Positions 8,845 through 61,215 of a stretch of 64,000 bases of DNA are shown in pieces. Position 1 is the stretch's first letter. Each line of letters opens with the position of its first letter. The position numbers were made by a program, and so were the translations under genes. The stretch lies in the NCBI GenBank assembly GCA_951406725.2, contig OX597839.1, positions 2,790,001 to 2,854,000 of the forward strand, written 5' to 3'. A model generated the notes under the pieces. That model was not told the origin of the DNA and did not search any database. It saw only the letters and a program-made list of their open reading frames with translations. This DNA is from Octopus vulgaris. Lineage: Eukaryota.

Positions 8845-9024
8845 TACCGTTGGCGATTTTTTTTCCTCTGTCTTCCCTTCTCAGGATCTTTCCTTCTCCT
8901 ATGTTTCCGATGAAGAGCTCCGCTCGAAACGTTAAACCCTCCTTCTTCCCTGAGTGTCCAATAATACTATATTCATTCCACATCCTCGCATTGTTGTGTT
9001 TTTTTTGTGTTTTCTTGTTTGGAT

Positions 9025-9029
<5 letters not shown>
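8845..9029 (+). mobile_element. Short Penelope pLTR-like element ending at (TA)n
   Basis: Contains the hammerhead fold at 8903-8937. T-rich 3' part abuts (TA)n at 9030. Confidence 0.6.
8903..8937 (+). ncRNA. Minimal type-I hammerhead ribozyme-like motif
   Basis: GTTT-CCGATGA-A-GAGC(TCC)GCTC-GAA-ACGT-T-AAAC: stem I GTTT/AAAC, stem II GAGC/GCTC, palindromic stem III ACGT, GUU site. Confidence 0.65.
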
Positions 9030-9069
<40 letters not shown>

Positions 9070-14098: not shown

Positions 14099-14641
14099 CT
14101 AAGGGGTATTTTGGAAATATACTGTGTGGTCGTTTAGGCATTTGGATTTGTGGTAGAGTTTGAATGTGTGAAAAAAGCAGTGGTTGCATGTGCTTAGTGC
14201 CTCATTATGTTTATTTAGCAATGTTGAAGAGTTGGGCTCCAATATGTGAAGCGTCTCCTTCAGGCAAAGCTTGCAGGTAGAGTGTTGGCCTTGGTAGGGA
14301 AGCCCTGAATCCAATATGAACCATGATAAAGTATAGGGTATATTTGTATTTTTGAGATAATATATGTGACTGGCAATGGTTGTAGATTTACTATGTATAT
14401 CGTATCTAAAAGAATGGAAGTGAGCGGTATATCGTTGCTTAAAACTTATTGTTGATCCTATGTATGTGGCTGTAGAGTTGTGTAATGTATTAAGAACAGT
14501 GCATTTGTAAATTACATTATATCTTTTGCAATGGGTTTGCAATGTGCAGATGGTTTCAGGATGGCAGTTACAAGTGGGTGAATTTTGGGGATTGTTTTTG
14601 GGAATAGAGGAGGTAATATTGTCAGAAGAGATTGTGTCCAT
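14099..14641 (-). pseudogene. Penelope-like element GIY-YIG endonuclease fragment (Naiad-like)
   Basis: CNC..C....C...VIYKC...TYIGST..FKQRY..H..SF...SHIY.LK...W.IL...CKLCLKE...LLNK.NE...C.H. 5'-truncated; a short 3' UTR ends at (TA)n near 13999. Confidence 0.8.
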
Positions 14642-16493
14642 GCTGGAGCACTGCCTTCAAGAATTTTAGTCGAACCCCAGTTTTCACCCCAGTATTTGTC
14701 ATTTTATTTTGTTAATATTGATACTTATTCTACCTGTTCCTTTTTGCCAAACTGCTAAGTTACAGGGATGTAAATACACCAACACTGGTTGTCAGGTGGT
14801 GGTAGAGGACAAGCATACACAAAGGCATGTGTACACACACACACACACATGTACATGTGTGACATGAATCTTTCAGTTTCTAACAACCAAATCCACTCAC
14901 AAGGCTTTGGTTGGCCCAACACCCTAGTAGAAGTCACTTACTGAAAGTGCCAAGTAGTGGCACTGAACTTGAAACCACATGGTTGGGAAGCAAGCTTCTT
15001 ACCACACAGCCATGCCTGTACCTATAGGTTAGTTTATTTTTAAACTGACATTGTAGGGTAGGTGTGAGAGGTCAGATCTGGCCAGTTTGAACTCAAAGCA
15101 AGTAAAATATTCAGGCTGGATATGGCTGGTTTAAATGCTAAAGGGCTAAATAATAAAATGTATAATCATGCATTTAACCCTTACTTCCTAAAATTAGTGG
15201 CTCTGTGCCAAAACATAAAACCATTATCATTACTATGATCTTAGTACAATTTATTGTAATATTCTTATCAGGTCTGTTAGAGTAGCACAGATGGTATCAT
15301 GTTGAGCAGTAATTAATTTCATTTACTAATGACTGAGTTCAAATCCTGCCAGTCAGCTTCGACATTACATTTTATCCCACCATTGTTCTGCAGGAAATAT
15401 TTACTATATTCAGTTCAGTAGACACTTGCTGCTCCAACACAACATCTGTGTGCGCGCGCAAATTTTATTATGCAATAACTAATGCCAGTACGGACATAAG
15501 ACGTTAAATGACGATGATATAATACCTCAAAACCTGAATAACAGGCTGAACAGAGATGCCGACAGCAACAGATCTTTTAGCTGAGTAAATAGGGTAATAA
15601 TAGCCTGATATTTAGACTTTACCAGATAAATACAGTTGTTCAGATCACAAAGGCATACATCTTGCTTGACCATGTGTTGTTGTTGGTTAATCCTGGGTCC
15701 ATGACCTGTGATCTAAGGCATTCCAGTTGTGGCCATTCCATGATTTTTTCTAGATATAGTGTGTCACATACAGACTATATGTTATCTACTGTTTTCTTCT
15801 TTTTTTAAGACTTTGGTGATATGAGGGAGATTTGGTTGCTATTTCTTGCAGGTCAGGTGATAACATAGTTGATCCTCCATTTTATTGGTTTAACATTTTC
15901 GTTGCTGTATTGCTATTTGGAATACCCTGCCTTTGCTTTAATTAATTTTGAAAATAATGAAAGAATTTATTAAAATAACTATGTCATTAAGCCAGTGTTT
16001 CGAGTATAAACTAACATGAAATTTTGATGAAAGTTTTTGATCATTTTAAAACAGTGAATTAGTATAATAAGTGCAGTTTCATGCAGGTTAGTAGTGAAAG
16101 GATTATACAGAGAATTTAGCGTCTGTTCTCCTCATACCCTTGCCATGGGATTTCATATTGTAAAGGAAGTGAAGCAGCTTTCTACTGGGAATCAAAGCGA
16201 AATTGCTAACTTGGATTCATTTGGTGCCAGTCTCCACTTAGCCATATTCTACACTGCTGCACTGATTACCTATTTTAATTAAACATAAGCATCTAATCAA
16301 AAATAACATTCAGATAAAATAAAATTGAATTAATTATGTGTATCAGATTTCATCTGAAATAGTTTTCTTATCCACGTTTACTTTATGATAAAATGCTTCA
16401 CTCTATGTCTTGGTTGTTTTTTTAAACTTTTTCTCCGCTAACCATATTCCAGTGAAATACACAGCAACACATTTTGAAAATGATTAACTATAT

Positions 16494-24759: not shown

Positions 24760-25350
24760 TGCTTTCTATTTGTACAAGTTGACTCCGAGTCTCACCCAGA
24801 GATCTCAAGAGAGAAGTTAGAAGTTCAAGTTGATGTTATGACTAGGTTGCCATTATATTTGGTTTTGCACAAAGTATTGTTCTAGAGAATGTCTAAGAAA
24901 ACTAAGAAAGTTATAAGTTTGTTTTAAAATTGGGATTACACAGACAGTATTTTATGTAGGATATGGGCAGTTCCCATGAGCACTATTTTTTGAATTTCTG
25001 CCAGTTTTGGATTTCCTGGTATCTGAGCTAGGTAGCAATCAACCCCTTTTGCTATCATTCTTAGGGTACCAATGACAACAGATATTGTTTTCCACATTTT
25101 GCCAATTTCTATTTCAAGATCCTTATGCTTGCTCAGTCTTTGGTGGGTCTTGAAAGATACATTTATGTCTATTGGGATAGTCATATCGACGAAGAGGCAT
25201 GATTTTTGTCTGATGTCCTCCAATATAATGTTTGGCCTATTTGCACCTATCTTTCTGTCAGTTTGAATGGTGAAGTTCCAGAGGAGTGAGATGTGATCAT
25301 TTTGAAGCACTGGAAGTGGTTTGTCTCCTCACCAGTTTTTATCATGGCAG
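24760..25350 (-). pseudogene. Dong/R4-like LINE 3' end (RLE domain plus 3' UTR)
   Basis: ORF 24936-25310: LLWNFTIQTDRKIGANRPNII...VDMTIP...KLSK.KDLEIEI..MW...VVIG (PD..D-type RLE). The 3' end lies near (TAA)n-like repeats. Confidence 0.85.
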
Positions 25351-29445: not shown

Positions 29446-29743
29446 TGCTGGTGGTGGTTGTGGTAGCAGCATTAGCAGCAGTGCTGGTGGTGGTTGTGGT
29501 AGCAGCATTAGCAGCAGTGCTGGTGGTGGTTGTGGTAGCAGCATTAGCAGCAGTGCTGGTGGTGGTTGTGGTAGCAGCATTAGCAGCAGTGCTGGTGGTG
29601 GTTGTGGTAGCAGCATTAGCAGCAGTGCTGGTGGTGGTTGTGGTAGCAGCATTAGCAGCAGTGCTGGTGGTGGTTGTGGTAGCAGCATTAGCAGCAGTGC
29701 TGGTGGTGGTTGTGGTAGCAGCATTAGCAGCAGTGCTGGTGGT
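29446..29743. repeat. Perfect 36-bp minisatellite, ~8.3 copies
   Basis: Unit tgctggtggtggttgtggtagcagcattagcagcag with no visible variants. Confidence 0.97.
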
Positions 29744-35420: not shown

Positions 35421-36924
35421 CAAGTAAAAAGTAGACTGTATGACACCACCATCACCACAGATATATACTATAAACACACAGACACACATCAATACCTAAA
35501 TTTTAAGTCGTGCCATCCACCACATACAAAACGCAACATCCCATACTGCCTAGCCAGAAGAATTTGTACCATTATAGAAGATGCAAATATCAGGAACAAA
35601 CGCCTAATAGAACTAAGAGAATTTTTGCTCAAAAAAAAAAAATAATCTCTACTTATAGAAAATGGCATACAGCGGGTTACAAAAATACCCATACAACAAC
35701 TTAGGACAACCCAAGGAAGAGGAAAACAAGAACAAGTCATACCATTCATAGTGACACACAACCCATGTCACCAGAATATCTTCAACTTGTCAAAGCAAAC
35801 CTACCAATCATTGCCCAAAGTAATTAATTAAAAGACATAATCACGGATCGAGCTATGGTGCTTAGTAAAAGACAGCCTAAAAACTTGAAAAAATTACTAA
35901 CAAAGGCAAAATTTGACCTTAGCAACAAAGACCAAACATTCACTGTATCTAAATGCAATGTAGCCGATGTGGCACATGCCAATTCATACATACCGGTCAA
36001 TATATAAACACAAAAACTGGGAAAATATTCACAAACGCGAATATGAACTGCAAAAGCAGAAATTTAATTTACTGCATCAAATGCCCAAATTGTGAAGAAA
36101 TATATGTAGGTCAGACGGGAAACGCACTATCAGAACGCTCACGTGTACACCGGCAACAGATTAGAGACCCAGAGGTCCGTCAGATACCTTTGAGTAACCA
36201 CCTAGCAACATGTGGCCGGAAAATATATATATTTCCATTCTACAAATTACACAGCCCAAGTGAAATCGAGAGGAAAATCAGAGAAAAGAATTTTATTGAT
36301 AAATTCGAACCCAAGCTAAATAAGCAATAATAATAATAATACTTAGATAGCAGGAAAATTATCTTATTTAGGGTTAAAAGTTCTATTGCCACCACCATCA
36401 CCACTAGCAACAATAATTAAGGTGCTGACAATGATGATGATGACAATTAAAATATAAAAATATAAAAATCTCTGACAAAGGCTATTTACAACATTTCTAA
36501 AAATAGCCCAACAATTGCTGCTTAGGCCAGGGTCTAGTTACAGGACTCTTGACATGTCCAACAAAGCGTGATGCCTTAACCAATCAGCTTAACCAACCAA
36601 TCAGCTTAAGTAATTGAGTGATACTACACACTGATTGGTCAGAATACAGTTTGCAAAACCTAGCATCTGGAGCCTACACAGCTGTATTTAAAGCACAGAT
36701 TCAATCATCTCGCTACAGTCAAAAATTGTGAAGCATGACTGTCACCACTATTACATGAACCTGAAGACTGCAGAATTTAATGCATAAAAGTACTAGTTCA
36801 ATCAGAATGAACATTTAACATTCTATTATTTTATTTTATTTTATTATATTATATTATATTATATTATATCATTATAAGATTGTAAATAAAACGTGAAAAT
36901 CAGACAAGGTTGGAATTCCTTTTA

Positions 36925-49346: not shown

Positions 49347-50270
49347 TGTGTACAGTGCTCAGGTGCACTACAACTCATCTAAAGTGTATATATAATCAGG
49401 TGTAGTTTCGGCAGATTTCGGAAAGCATGAGGGCCTTAAAGGATGCAGTGTCATGGCAGTCAACAACTGACGCAGGCAGTTTATTCCATGCTTCAGCAAC
49501 TCTGAGCGTGAAAAAATGTTTCCGAAAGTCATGGGAGCTGTGTTGTTTTCTGACTTTGTAGGCATGTCCACGTGTGTTAGACACATGGAGATCAAAAAGG
49601 TGTTCAGTGTTGTTGGTGAGGTGGTTGATAACTTTGCGGGTGTTTACCAAGTCCGTCGCCAGACGCCGGAGCTTCAGTGAATCCATGCCCAGGGAAATAA
49701 GGCGCTCAGAATATGGTAGGTGTCTGATGGAGGGTATGCGTTTGGTTGCACGTCTCTGGACAGATTCCAGGAGGTCAATGTTCTGAGCAAGATAGGGGTT
49801 CCAAACTGATGATGTGAATTCCAAGTGTGGTCGTACCATAGCTATATACAGTTTTAAATAGATGGCTGGAGAGCGGCTAACAAAAGTCTTGCTGAGTGAT
49901 GCCAAGACACCCTCGGCCTTCTTGACAATTTTAGAGATATGCTTTGTCCAACGCAAATCACTGCTGACAGTGATGCCTAGGTCACGCTCGCAAGAGGATT
50001 TCTTGATATCAGTGTTGTGGAGGGAGTATGTGGACGCAGGGTTTTTTCTCCCAAAATGCATGGTGGTACACTTGTCCACAGCCAGTTTCAGTTGCCAGTC
50101 TGTGATCCATTGCTGCATTGTGTCTAGGTCTGATTGCAGGAAATAGTTATAGACATCAGGATCTGTCCTCTTGATTTCAAGGTACAGCTTGATGTCATCT
50201 GCATATTTCAATACTGTGGCATTCTTTAAATTGGCATCTATGTCATTAATGTATGCCACAAACAAGAGGG
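49312..50270 (-). mobile_element. 5'-truncated CR1-like LINE (RT C-terminal half)
   Basis: Intact 289-aa frame with YINDI..., KYADDIKLY, LQSDLD...W...WQL.LAVDKC, ERDLGI, VRPHLE, ESVQRRATK and RVAEAWNKLP. Short 3' UTR and (ATT)n tail. Confidence 0.93.
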
Positions 50271-51714
50271 GGGGGGGCTGGTTCAGTCCTGTAGCATCCA
50301 GGTTACTCTGTCAAATGTAGGGCTTATTATTTATTCACATTGTTTTGAATTAATCATGCATTACCATGATGGTGCTCCAGCATGACCACAGCTGAAACGA
50401 GTAAGGAATAAAAGAATATCTTGTAGTTCTGAGATTTTGATAATTTGATTGTTTATTTTTAGAATGACATTGTGGGTTGTGTGTGAGAGGCTAGATCTTA
50501 CTTGTTTGAAAATAAAATAGGCAGAATATTTGGGCCAGATAGAGCCAGCTTAATCCTTTGGCATTGAGATTATTCAGTCAAATGTATTACTTATTTATTT
50601 ATTCACATTGTTTTCAGTTAATCTTGCATTATCTCAAAGCTCTGATATTTTCATGATGTTATTGTTTATAGAGCAACATTGTAGGGTTGGTGCGAGAGAC
50701 TGGATTTGGCCAATTTGATCATAAAACATGTAGATTATTTGGGACTGATATGGCCAGTTTAAATGCTAAATGGTTAAAGACCAAACTGAAAGAAAATAAT
50801 GGCATTATCCCTCAGCATTCAGATTACTCTGTCAAATGTAATCCTTATTTGTTCCCAATGGTTTGAATTAATCATGCATTATCTTGTAGCTTTCAGTGGT
50901 GTTATTGTTTATCTTTAGAATGGTATTGTAGGGCAGGTGTAACAGGCTGGATACGGCAAGTTTGAACATAAAACTGGTAGAATATTTGAGCTGGATATGG
51001 CTGGTTTAATCCTTTAGCATTTAGATTACTTTGTCAAGTTTTAGAATGATATTGTAGGGGTTGTCTGAGAGGTCACATCTGGCCAGTTTGAGCATAAGAA
51101 AGGCAGAATATTTTGGCTGGATTAAATGCTAAAGGGTTATACTGTAGGAAGTTGGTTGAAACATGTCTTGGCTATTATTTCTTGTAGGTCTCTGTGTATA
51201 TGACGAATCAGATATTATTTTCATCTCTGCTCATTCAATCATTTTTTTCTCTCCAATATAATATATCCAGTGCTACATTTTCAAATGATTTCCATTCTTA
51301 AGCTGGTAAGGAAGTAAGGAATGATTTGATGGATGTTTTGGCTGCTATTTCTTGCATGACATCTTGGTATAAGAGGATTCACGTATTAATTTTCATTACA
51401 AAAGACATCATCTGCGCTCATTTAGTCATTTTCTCCATCATATATCCACTGCCACATTATCAAACACGCTTTTGTTTTAGATTGGTCGGAATCGATGTTT
51501 GACTGCTATTTCTTGCAAGCCGAGCAACTGTATAGAGACTCCCTAGTTTTGGAAGTAGTGCTGCATTTAGCTATTCTAGCAATGTCTTCTTGATTTCGAA
51601 GCAATAACTTTCCATGGAATCTAATACTAATCAACATTGAAAGATCTTATCACCCCCCTCTCCCACTGTTACTCTGAGATTTATGGAGTCATGCGGTACA
51701 CGCTTAAATCTCCC

Positions 51715-53939: not shown

Positions 53940-54395
53940 CCCACTCTCGCCTCCCCCATATCACACCACATCACATCACATCACACCACCACGCACACAC
54001 TAACACTGACCACTTCCCAGCTTCACACCATAATCCACACACCTACACATGCACACACGTCAAGGTGACCAGTCCTCTTCCACATGCTCATACATGCTCT
54101 CTTATACACACGCACATGCACCTTCGTTTTGGATCGCTACTACTTCATTATCTCCCCTTCTTCCTAGGTCTCCTGTGTGACCCCTCTGTCCGGCATTCGC
54201 CATGATAGATCGCTAGCCGCTACACATTCTTTATTTTCTCTTCCTGTTTCTTTCTGTGTTCCTTTCTGTGGAAGAGCGTAGGCTCGAAACGTTAAAGACT
54301 TTTTCACTTCCTGAGCATTAAACTAATACATCTGTTTGTTGTCTGCACCACCTGTCTTCATCTTTTGTTTGTTTTTTGTGAATTCTCTCCTCATA
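53940..54395 (+). mobile_element. Penelope pLTR-like element ending at (TA)n
   Basis: Carries the hammerhead fold at 54262-54297. T-rich 3' part ends ttctctcctc-atatata. The 5' boundary is uncertain. Confidence 0.55.
54262..54297 (+). ncRNA. Minimal type-I hammerhead-like motif (variant core CUGUGGA)
   Basis: CTTT-CTGTGGA-A-GAGC(GTAG)GCTC-GAA-ACGT-T-AAAG. Same architecture as 8903-8937 with a compensatory stem I. Confidence 0.6.
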
Positions 54396-54748
54396 TATAA
54401 AATATATATATAGCCTTCTTACATTTGATTCTATGAGGCAAACCCCATCATCATCATCATCATCATTTTGTGTCTGCTTCTCAATGCGGACCTGTGTGGG
54501 ATTGTTTTTTCTGAGGCAGAACTTTATGGTTGAATGTCCTTCTTAAACACAAGTGCAGGCTGTACTTAGTCTAAAACCAGGATATACTAGGTTTATTTTG
54601 GGGTTTATTGTACTGACAATGACACCAGGGTGCATATCTGACTGTGATGCAGTTGAAATGCATATAGGTCCAGAAAAGAATGCTGTAAATAACTGTTTAA
54701 TAAATTTATAGATGTGGAAAATCTCCTTTCTCTTTAGAATTATTAATT

Positions 54749-56554: not shown

Positions 56555-57205
56555 TCTATAAAATTCCCTACTGGGAATGGCCAACTTATTGCTTATAAAC
56601 TCTATATCTGGATGGACTCATATTAAACTCTGTTGGACTTTTGGATTTTACTCAAAGGACATTTGAATATTACACATATATACCATTATACCTATAAAAC
56701 AGATTTACGAATTCAATACCCATACATATCTTACATCTATTTTCTTTACTTCACCTCACTCTCTATTTGTATCACATCGAAACTAACTATGACTTAATTT
56801 TTCCTCTCACACCGTTTCCAATGAAGGGATATTATTAATTAATATCCTAGAAACAGCTGTAAGACCTATCTATAAATGCTCTAATATCTATACAGCCTTA
56901 GTTTTTTTATCTCATTACGCAAAAAATTCGTATATACACACGCTGACATAGAACCAACGTTGAACCCTTTAGTCGCAATATTACTGAATTCTGGAACTTA
57001 ACTATGGTCTGTCTATAGCACTTATTCAGCATTACCTTTGGGTCTCAATGACACCATTATCTCTTATAACCTCAATATATGAATCGAACAGCTTTTGTGT
57101 GTTTCTTAAATGGCTTACAAACACCTTCCACGCTGCAATTGTTTTCGTTTCAGCACACAATCTCAGATCAAATCACTTGCTATGCAAGTACATCTCCGTA
57201 ATAAA
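56551..57205 (+). mobile_element. Penelope pLTR-like element between (TA)n tracts; first ~105 nt duplicated at 55330-55448
   Basis: Hammerhead fold at 56814-56865. Both ends abut TA repeats. Confidence 0.6.
56814..56865 (+). ncRNA. Degenerate type-I hammerhead motif
   Basis: GTTT-CCAATGA-ag-GGATATTA(ttaat)TAATATCC-ta-GAA-ACAGCTGT-A-AGAC: 8-bp stem II, palindromic stem III, GUA site. Confidence 0.6.
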
Positions 57206-60425: not shown

Positions 60426-60460
<35 letters not shown>

Positions 60461-60462
<2 letters not shown>

Positions 60463-60622
60463 CCGGAATAAACACATAAATGTGAAACAAGGTGGAAAAA
60501 AGAGTACTCAAATACCAGTGGTAGAGTAATATGCTTTATTTAAAGCAGCAGAAAATTCAACAAAACCTGTTACTCTGAGTTTCATGTTGCCATTCGTCGG
60601 ACAGTTTTTGCCAGCAATAAAG
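60461..60622 (-). mobile_element. ~160-bp hammerhead-bearing element embedded in (TA)n
   Basis: TA repeats on both sides. Contains the hammerhead at 60562-60608. Confidence 0.65.
60562..60608 (-). ncRNA. Type-I hammerhead ribozyme-like motif
   Basis: Reverse complement AAAACTGT-CCGACGA-ATG(GCAA)CAT-GAA-ACTC(A)GAGT-A-ACAGgTTTT. All three stems form, with a GNRA loop II and a GUA site. Confidence 0.72.
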
Positions 60623-61215
60623 TATATATATACATATACAGTCAGCGGATGAGATCCAGAGATTCTCAGTATAGAAAACACTTAGTAGTGCTCAAATGAT
60701 CCAAACTTAGTCTATGTCTTTATGAGCTGTTATATTTAATTTGCTTATCTACATAATTGTCTCTCTCTGTATATATATTACTTAGGCATTTCAATTCCTA
60801 GACCAAATGGTGTGTTGTGTTCTTGAGCAAAACACTTCATCTCATGTTGCTCTGCAATCACCTTGATACCTGGCACATGGTACACTGCGCACCTGTTCAA
60901 GCAATGTCAATTTGATGTCAATGTCAATCCTCTCTGTGTTTAGCCCCTTGTGGGCAGTAAAGAAATAGATATATAAATTATGCTTTTACAAGAAGTGAGA
61001 CAGTGACTTAAGTTGCTAGCCTTTGTTGATCTGTCTGATGAAAGCTAGCTGACTGACAGAGGCTAGCAGGCTGAAACTACAAAGTCCCTGTCAACTCTCG
61101 TCTTGTAGAAGTATAATAAATAGGTACTCTGCAGAAAAAAAAAGTGTTGAGTAATTCTTCTGTTCATGGAAACAAAACAATGCATGCACTATCTCTCTCT
61201 CTCTCTCTCTCGCGC

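Follow-up and report, generated by a model that had tools for sequence, protein, structure and literature searches.

The stretch analysed here (the window) comprises 64,000 nt of Octopus vulgaris DNA (assembly GCA_951406725.2, contig OX597839.1, positions 2,790,001 to 2,854,000). At 60461-60622 it holds a short island between TA repeats, in which the parts of a hammerhead ribozyme surround a core with C in place of U at position 4 (hereafter C4, as opposed to U4). This raises the question of which kind of element the island derives from, how C came to occupy position 4 and whether a hammerhead altered in this way can work. Read on the minus strand, 60461-60622 yields CTGT, CCGACGA, ATG-GCAA-CAT, GAA, ACTC-A-GAGT, A and ACAG, with TA repeats on both sides, which confirms the parts listed in an earlier note made from the sequence alone.

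Two pieces of one family make up the island. The larger one is a direct, 5'-truncated piece of about 153 nt (60463..60614, minus strand), consisting of a pLTR end and a tail, and its 5' break lies 80 nt upstream of the tail, inside the zone of 60-85 nt in which breaks are modal. Next to it, a 7-nt remnant of an inverted partner copy (60616..60622, plus strand) ends at the family's first, no-tail 3' end point, the same point at which the inverted partners of other copies start. A TA-rich target repeat (60623..60640) adjoins the element's 5' side and a (TA)17 target repeat (60429..60462) its 3' side. Within the direct piece, all features being on the minus strand, the 5' arm of stem I (60601..60613) is composed of a distal 8 nt, one mismatch and the proximal CTGT. 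It is followed by the core C3-A9, CCGACGA (60594..60600), with the C of position 4 at 60599, and by stem II with its GNRA loop, ATG-GCAA-CAT (60584..60593), which derives from ACG/CGT by CpG-type transitions. The segment 60572..60583 contains G12-A13-A14 (GAA, 60583-60581) and the palindromic helix III, ACTC-A-GAGT (60580-60572); the 3' arm of stem I occupies 60558..60570. By hammerhead numbering, cleavage is predicted at 60570..60571, after A17 (60571) of the GUA site. Copies of the family end at one of two fixed 3' points, AATAAAG or, 71 nt beyond it, CCGG. In the window copy the first lies at 60534..60540; no-tail copies join TA here, and it would represent the first start site of the reverse transcriptase (RT). 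The 71-nt tail (60463..60533) runs from there to the second.

The arrangement of helices I, II and III around the core, with stem I open, corresponds to a type I hammerhead in which helix III needs a dimer, and the earlier suggestion that the palindromic helix III suits dimers is supported. Stem I was likewise recognised correctly, albeit at too short a length, as it comprises 4 bp, a mismatch and up to 8 bp. The complete hammerhead fold that had been claimed is obtained in the predicted dimer only. Energy folding of the monomer gives a lowest-energy structure that is not the hammerhead (z = 0.76), whereas the predicted dimer fold is a dimeric hammerhead, both for the window copy and for one young copy. 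The dimer energies are no better than those of shuffled sequences (86/300 and 296/300 shuffles do as well), so that folding by itself is weak proof. A search of the 231-nt region against the Rfam hammerhead families gave no match at E up to 10, none of the seven matches obtained being a hammerhead, and the Rfam matches listed for the whole window are simple repeats.

By sequence comparison, the window copy corresponds to the 3'-terminal part of a Hydra-clade Penelope-like element (PLE) that is autonomous, with a 3.36-kb unit and an RT–GIY-YIG ORF. The genome-wide search for copies that the earlier note had proposed covered 2.8 Gb and rules out a single-copy sequence: the 162-nt query returned 566 candidates, of which the 40 scored are 95-100% identical, and an exact 33-nt pattern from the tail matches 4,497 times. 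In the upstream direction some copies extend for over 1.3 kb and enter the end of the nuclease ORF, others continue downstream into the RT ORF, and in tandem copies the tail continues into the 5' UTR and ORF. A protein search yielded 6,974 candidates, and a stop-free open frame of 727 codons is present in 45 of the 150 scored (counted by eye). In 20 long loci (8-10 kb each), a 711-aa ORF stands beside direct pLTR copies spaced about 3.36 kb apart, every printed core among them being CTGATGA.

The 711-aa ORF contains YRDD at 344 and then GVVY..YTG at 580, the order of an RT before a C-terminal GIY-YIG nuclease. It further shows RWK at 37, DKT at 113 and no DKG, a CxCX5C linker (CNCKNESSC at 562), the absence of CCHH (no cysteine between GVVY and YTG), a CxxC (CRLC at 667) and a CxH (CRH at 695). 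The features given for the Hydra clade are RT followed by GIY-YIG, RWK, DKT, CxCX5C, no CCHH, CxxC and CxH (PMC8557442, accessible text). GNKY at 51 fits the pattern of GxKF/Y, an N-terminal motif that is unconserved in the Hydra clade, and may be its homologue. Scans with Pfam and NCBIfam assigned the ORF to no family and a PDB sequence search returned nothing useful; homologues that are 43-58% identical do exist. The insertion features of the clade are all present, namely the (TA)n target, pLTRs, an inverted 5'-truncated copy and an optional tail, while the 3.36-kb unit, with its long AT-rich 3' UTR, exceeds the descriptive norm of under 3 kb. The placement in Hydra is based on the ORF motifs together with the likeness to the published hammerhead and layout; an initial assignment to the Nematis clade was dropped in its favour. 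The clade and the layout of the element are already known, as is the U4C change, from a viroid.

Thus, the proposal that the island is a solo copy of a Penelope-like pLTR, bearing a type I hammerhead and produced by a Penelope-like RT, is supported, but its description as a retrozyme-like non-autonomous element is not. Short and long copies share subfamily variants, and the family is continuous with an ORF-bearing element, while a retrozyme would have no protein-coding parent to depend on. Pairs arranged head-to-head in (TA)n are common: an inverted partner accompanies 53 of 90 tail-bearing copies, and the tail is absent from all but one of these partners (52 of 53). Inverted copies and tails are standard for PLEs. 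Two younger fold-back pairs flank an older one of the family (L145/L146), having inserted into the (TA)n at its ends.

The positions at which copies break bear on the template from which they were made. In a sample of 90 consecutive tail matches on one contig, 46 direct pieces (46 of the 69 at risk) have their break 60-85 nt upstream of the tail, in a zone that stops at a sharp edge (83-85). Of the inverted partners, 33/53 break in the same zone, though they started 71 nt closer. The break hazard amounts to 3.5% per nt in the zone versus 0.1-0.5% elsewhere, and a second sample, which overlaps the first in part, has 24 of 45 copies of the youngest subfamily (Y) ending at 77-84. The edge coincides with the A of a CATTCT or TATTCT motif that recurs in old subfamilies; this short motif, read from the edge itself, presumably fits the initiator consensus. 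Copies followed by the ORF correspond to a second RT pass, and among 43 such distinct copies (identical-flank copies merged, seven broken earlier) none of the 36 at risk breaks in the zone (Fisher p ~1e-12). Ends at the GUA site had been put forward as a signature of this element, and the DNA gives no clear sign of it: two of 90 copies start at the cut site, where about 0.35 would be expected from neighbouring rates, and both are ambiguous in that microhomology can explain them. Because the 5' ends cluster at an initiator-like site, not at the cut site, and never do so on the second pass, the window stub is most likely a run-off cDNA. The RNA 5' end would accordingly be placed just before the hammerhead, with uncut linear RNA serving as the template for run-off stubs, and longer-than-unit copies would come from another template, either a read-through multimer or a circle. 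A circle joined at the cut site has the junction of tandem DNA, so that DNA cannot separate circles from multimers; circles would require cleavage.

The two core states pass the edge with equal frequency (beyond 90 nt, 19/43 C4 and 21/45 U4 copies; p = 0.83), and DNA therefore nowhere ties core state to template supply. A deficit of edge-passing copies in C4 subfamilies, hinted at by 2/29 versus 19/47 copies beyond 120 nt, did not hold up in the second sample. Among L371-L450, copies of at least 250 nt account for 5/43 of the C4 and 18/45 of the U4 class (p = 0.003), a difference that age, processivity or template type could explain. The window copy, with its extra CpG decay, is probably inert.

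The C4 core itself is widespread. Exact patterns match 2,528 times genome-wide for C4 and 3,732 times for U4, a third pattern gives 3,151 matches and the reversed controls give 0; together with the 566 candidates, these counts show that the motif is not due to chance. In a positional sample chosen regardless of the core, C4 is found in 13 of 30 loci, and it is also present in contigs of a second organism. By subfamily, CCGA is the core of 106/129 O, 14/21 P and 12/28 R/Q copies, the last with CpG-decayed forms in addition, and CTGA that of 63/66 Y copies, CUGAUGA being the core of the youngest lineage. P and R/Q, which are older relatives and mostly CCGACGA, were gathered by patterns and their sets are not random samples. 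C4 travels with two other diagnostic bases, from which it follows that source elements carried it. A tree was built from 55 rows (all 23 old, 22/94 O and 10/71 Y) after masking positions 4 and 7; rooted at the midpoint, it forms a ladder from old rows through O to Y. Y is nested inside C4 lineages and the O+Y clade is supported at 100/98, while many inner branches are weak. A further pattern search retrieved point mutants only and no separate subfamily.

The C4 core is thus inherited: it is the majority state of three older subfamilies, among which the youngest lineage, the one with intact ORFs, is nested. The earlier note was right that CCGANGA is a real non-canonical core; that it was the ancestral subfamily state and later reverted had escaped it. 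As published Hydra hammerheads are U4, the simplest path would be a change from U4 to C4 early in the family and a return to U4 in the youngest lineage. Going back from C4 to U takes a CpG transition, and since no other change is as common in copies, selection is unnecessary to account for it. The U4C change was likely tolerated rather than a one-off error, since older lineages carried C4 before the youngest switched back. No description of a C4 core in PLE hammerheads was found in the literature searched or in the accessible text and supplements of PMC8557442 and PMC4209133, whose figures, like paywalled texts, could hold one.

Conservation of the stems was assessed across the same subfamilies. 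The ATG/CAT of the window copy's stem II results from two independent CpG-type transitions, and 4/129 copies have both where 2.9 are expected; its interpretation as a compensatory change was rejected in favour of independent CpG decay. Pair 2.1-1.1 is U-A in 31, U·G in 14, C-G in 11 and unpaired in three of 59 distinct rows, and among the copies listed, 29 of 100 that have G at 1.1 show C at 2.1, as opposed to 0 of 100 that have A at 1.1 (by eye). Three pairs have changed on both sides, where shuffles give 3.4, in rows that are related by descent. Stem covariation thus appears to rest mostly on one pair that is common by descent. Across the published Hydra families, the helix III arms vary in step (PMC8557442, File S2). 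Here they are constant across subfamilies and their central base varies (U, C, A); subfamilies also differ at N7, in the tetraloop (GGAA to GCAA), in the bulge of stem I and at position 11.1. The A15.1-U16.1 pair is A-U in 58/59 rows, GAA is present, the NUH site is GUA, and the ten other core bases are the majority state in every subfamily. In the youngest lineage, stem II has 2 bp and an A·A mismatch at its base, a position at which mismatches are frequent in the published Hydra rows (PMC8557442, File S2). The tail is likewise conserved across subfamilies, which means that constraint near the hammerhead need not be catalytic. Self-cleavage at GUA is a prediction from hammerhead numbering.

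We regard as reasonably probable, and as the best explanation of the whole, that the island is a Hydra-clade run-off stub whose C4 hammerhead belonged to a weak but working type. A rather unlikely alternative retains the same element and origin but has a C4 hammerhead that does not cut, its fold serving RNA pairing, binding of the element's protein or, as the downstream part, an internal promoter. In the pairing variant, the helix III palindrome would join two RNAs and both ends of the DNA break would be copied, giving head-to-head inversions, as the inverted partners of 53/90 tail-bearing copies would suggest. That the helix III arms stayed constant while the core changed would suit such a role, although neither pairing nor binding would obviously need the ten other catalytic-core bases, which remain the majority everywhere. 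Lineages with C4 reached thousands of copies by transposition and gave rise to read-through copies (L046, L050); U4 was regained in the youngest lineage. In the accessible texts, hammerhead mutants of Poseidon still insert in vitro (PMC11167929) and the D. virilis Penelope promoter is internal (PMC2377424), both of which agree with a hammerhead that does not cut. The off-consensus cores of two other families in the window point in the same direction, whereas 26/26 published Hydra rows read CUGANGA (PMC8557442, File S2), though these were found with a canonical descriptor.

Another alternative, which we consider improbable, holds that the short unit propagates itself as a non-autonomous element, a solo-pLTR SINE or retrozyme with its own initiator that is copied in trans by the Hydra RT. 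The form of about 150 nt is indeed the modal insertion and keeps the putative start site, but breaks scatter over 60-85 without a single master end and a regular tandem array is absent: a search for regular short arrays found 16 close same-strand pairs among 360 matches, irregularly spaced and with overlapping loci counted twice. A few variants are confined to short copies, such as a tail change in 8/47 short versus 0/33 long O copies; these are CpG sites enriched by window-like sampling, and the major variants all occur in both short and long copies. Trans-mobilisation of pLTRs has been reported in a rotifer (PMC3846280, accessible text), while the Poseidon protein needs ORF sequence downstream of the start sites (PMC11167929, accessible text), which the stubs lack. 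Finally, it is very improbable that the 5' pile-up arises from RT falling off at the hammerhead's structure and that U4C has drifted neutrally in a motif the element can do without: the break zone does match the hammerhead's 5' half, a single change among the eleven core bases is enough and Naiad elements spread without canonical hammerheads, but a structural block would be expected on each pass and is seen in 0/36 second passes, cDNAs started 71 nt apart share the same edge and the stems are paired across subfamilies.

Four further hammerhead-like sites in the window (8903, 36756, 54262 and 56814) had been grouped with the island as one set; they represent separate families, for which blastn detects no extended similarity to the element. 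At 8860-9030 (plus strand, core at about 8907), an unrelated family of about 230 nt with a fairly fixed 5' start carries a minimal hammerhead. It has 6,609 exact matches, about 70 of the first 100 listed being C4 (by eye), with CCGACGA as the majority core, and no link to an ORF was found in 30 loci. A third family, at about 54266-54400 (plus strand), combines minimal hammerhead stems with U at core position 6 (CTGTGGA, CTGTTGA or CTGTAGA in 17/26 flank copies, G8 being preceded by G in 8 of these), a core more degenerate than C4. Another family, at about 36755-36815 (plus strand), has the canonical CTGAAGA and a palindromic helix III, with A replacing G12 in the copy. The decayed hammerhead-like motif at about 56815-56870 (plus strand), with a CCAATGA core, belongs to yet another family, of which L185 contains a CTGATGA relative. 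Other features of the window include, at 14099-14656 (minus strand) and near (TA)n, a fragment from the GIY-YIG end of another Hydra-like element, which shows 34% identity with the ORF of the present family, and, at 29446-29743, a perfect 36-bp tandem repeat of 8.3 copies with 100% matches. The open frames at 49396-50310 and 24936-25328 (both minus strand) resemble what we take to be C-terminal pieces of LINE reverse transcriptases.

The window copy itself is an ordinary decayed stub, and the point of interest is the history of its family. A broader interpretation, which we put forward only tentatively, is that an autonomous lineage used the C4 hammerhead as its working ribozyme while it spread in several waves, the cut being made by a protein-assisted dimer. 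The genome would then keep both RNA forms, the uncut linear transcripts as run-off stubs and the cut-and-ligated unit circles as longer-than-unit copies without the 5' edge. Off-consensus cores being common in this genome (C4 in two unrelated families, U6 in a third), canonical descriptors would in that interpretation have missed a large class of tolerated hammerhead cores. The function of PLE hammerheads has been described as unclear (Craig 2021, PMC8557442, accessible text), and they are dispensable for insertion in vitro (Frangieh 2024, PMC11167929, accessible text). The family offers a natural experiment, as the older C4 form, with thousands of copies, and the youngest U4 form, with intact ORFs and possible expression, differ at a handful of positions. 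The 5' edge confined to the first pass predicts the RNA start precisely and provides a means of examining if circles are the source of full-length copies. Should C4 cores cleave, animal hammerheads would be undercounted by ribozyme surveys that insist on CUGANGA.

Among known systems, the closest likeness is with Hydra-2_aMil from a coral (PMC8557442, File S2), in which stem I, the helix III arms and the site are identical to those of this family. The Hydra clade as a whole shares the (TA)n targets and a hammerhead with four-base palindromic arms around one free base, but most of its members are under 3 kb with a typical tail of 30-40, compared with 3.36 kb and 71 nt here, and the 26 published rows are all CUGANGA, in contrast to the CCGANGA of the older subfamilies here (PMC8557442, accessible text and File S2). 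A stem II of only 2-3 bp is a further difference. The hammerhead differs from that of Hydra-1_oBim, and on this feature alone the present family is probably another one. In the Penelope-2_NV row (PMC8557442, File S2), loop II equals the family's stem II hairpin ACG-GCAA-CGT, as a shared tertiary element or by coincidence. The minimal hammerheads of PLE pLTRs in PMC4209133 are of the same type I, with a dimer-dependent helix III, mostly in solo copies of truncated PLEs and with low expected activity; in its accessible text the only core change is U3-A8, and C4, which its descriptor could not detect, occurs in 0/56 aligned examples. Poseidon of Anolis, studied in vitro (PMC11167929, accessible text), has the same two internal RT starts that define the tail and the same AT-rich targets; there, both DNA strands are cut and extended, uncut RNA is the main template and cleavage is protein-assisted. 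Its hammerhead overlaps the ORF start, unlike the present one, which is situated some 190 nt further upstream, where the RNA 5' end would be placed, and a 5' edge confined to the first pass, seen in this family, was not found described in the accessible text for Poseidon. Non-LTR retrozymes (bioRxiv 10.64898/2026.07.22.740005, accessible text) resemble the island in their short non-coding unit and type I hammerhead related to PLE pLTRs, but they form tandem arrays with a hammerhead per unit, whereas the short copies here are single or head-to-head and continuous with an ORF element. The core change itself is shared with a natural U4C hammerhead of a viroid, which is reduced in vitro and said to be sufficient in vivo; there it is a rare variant (PMC3088659, accessible text), while here it is the majority state of successive retroelement subfamilies, in thousands of copies.
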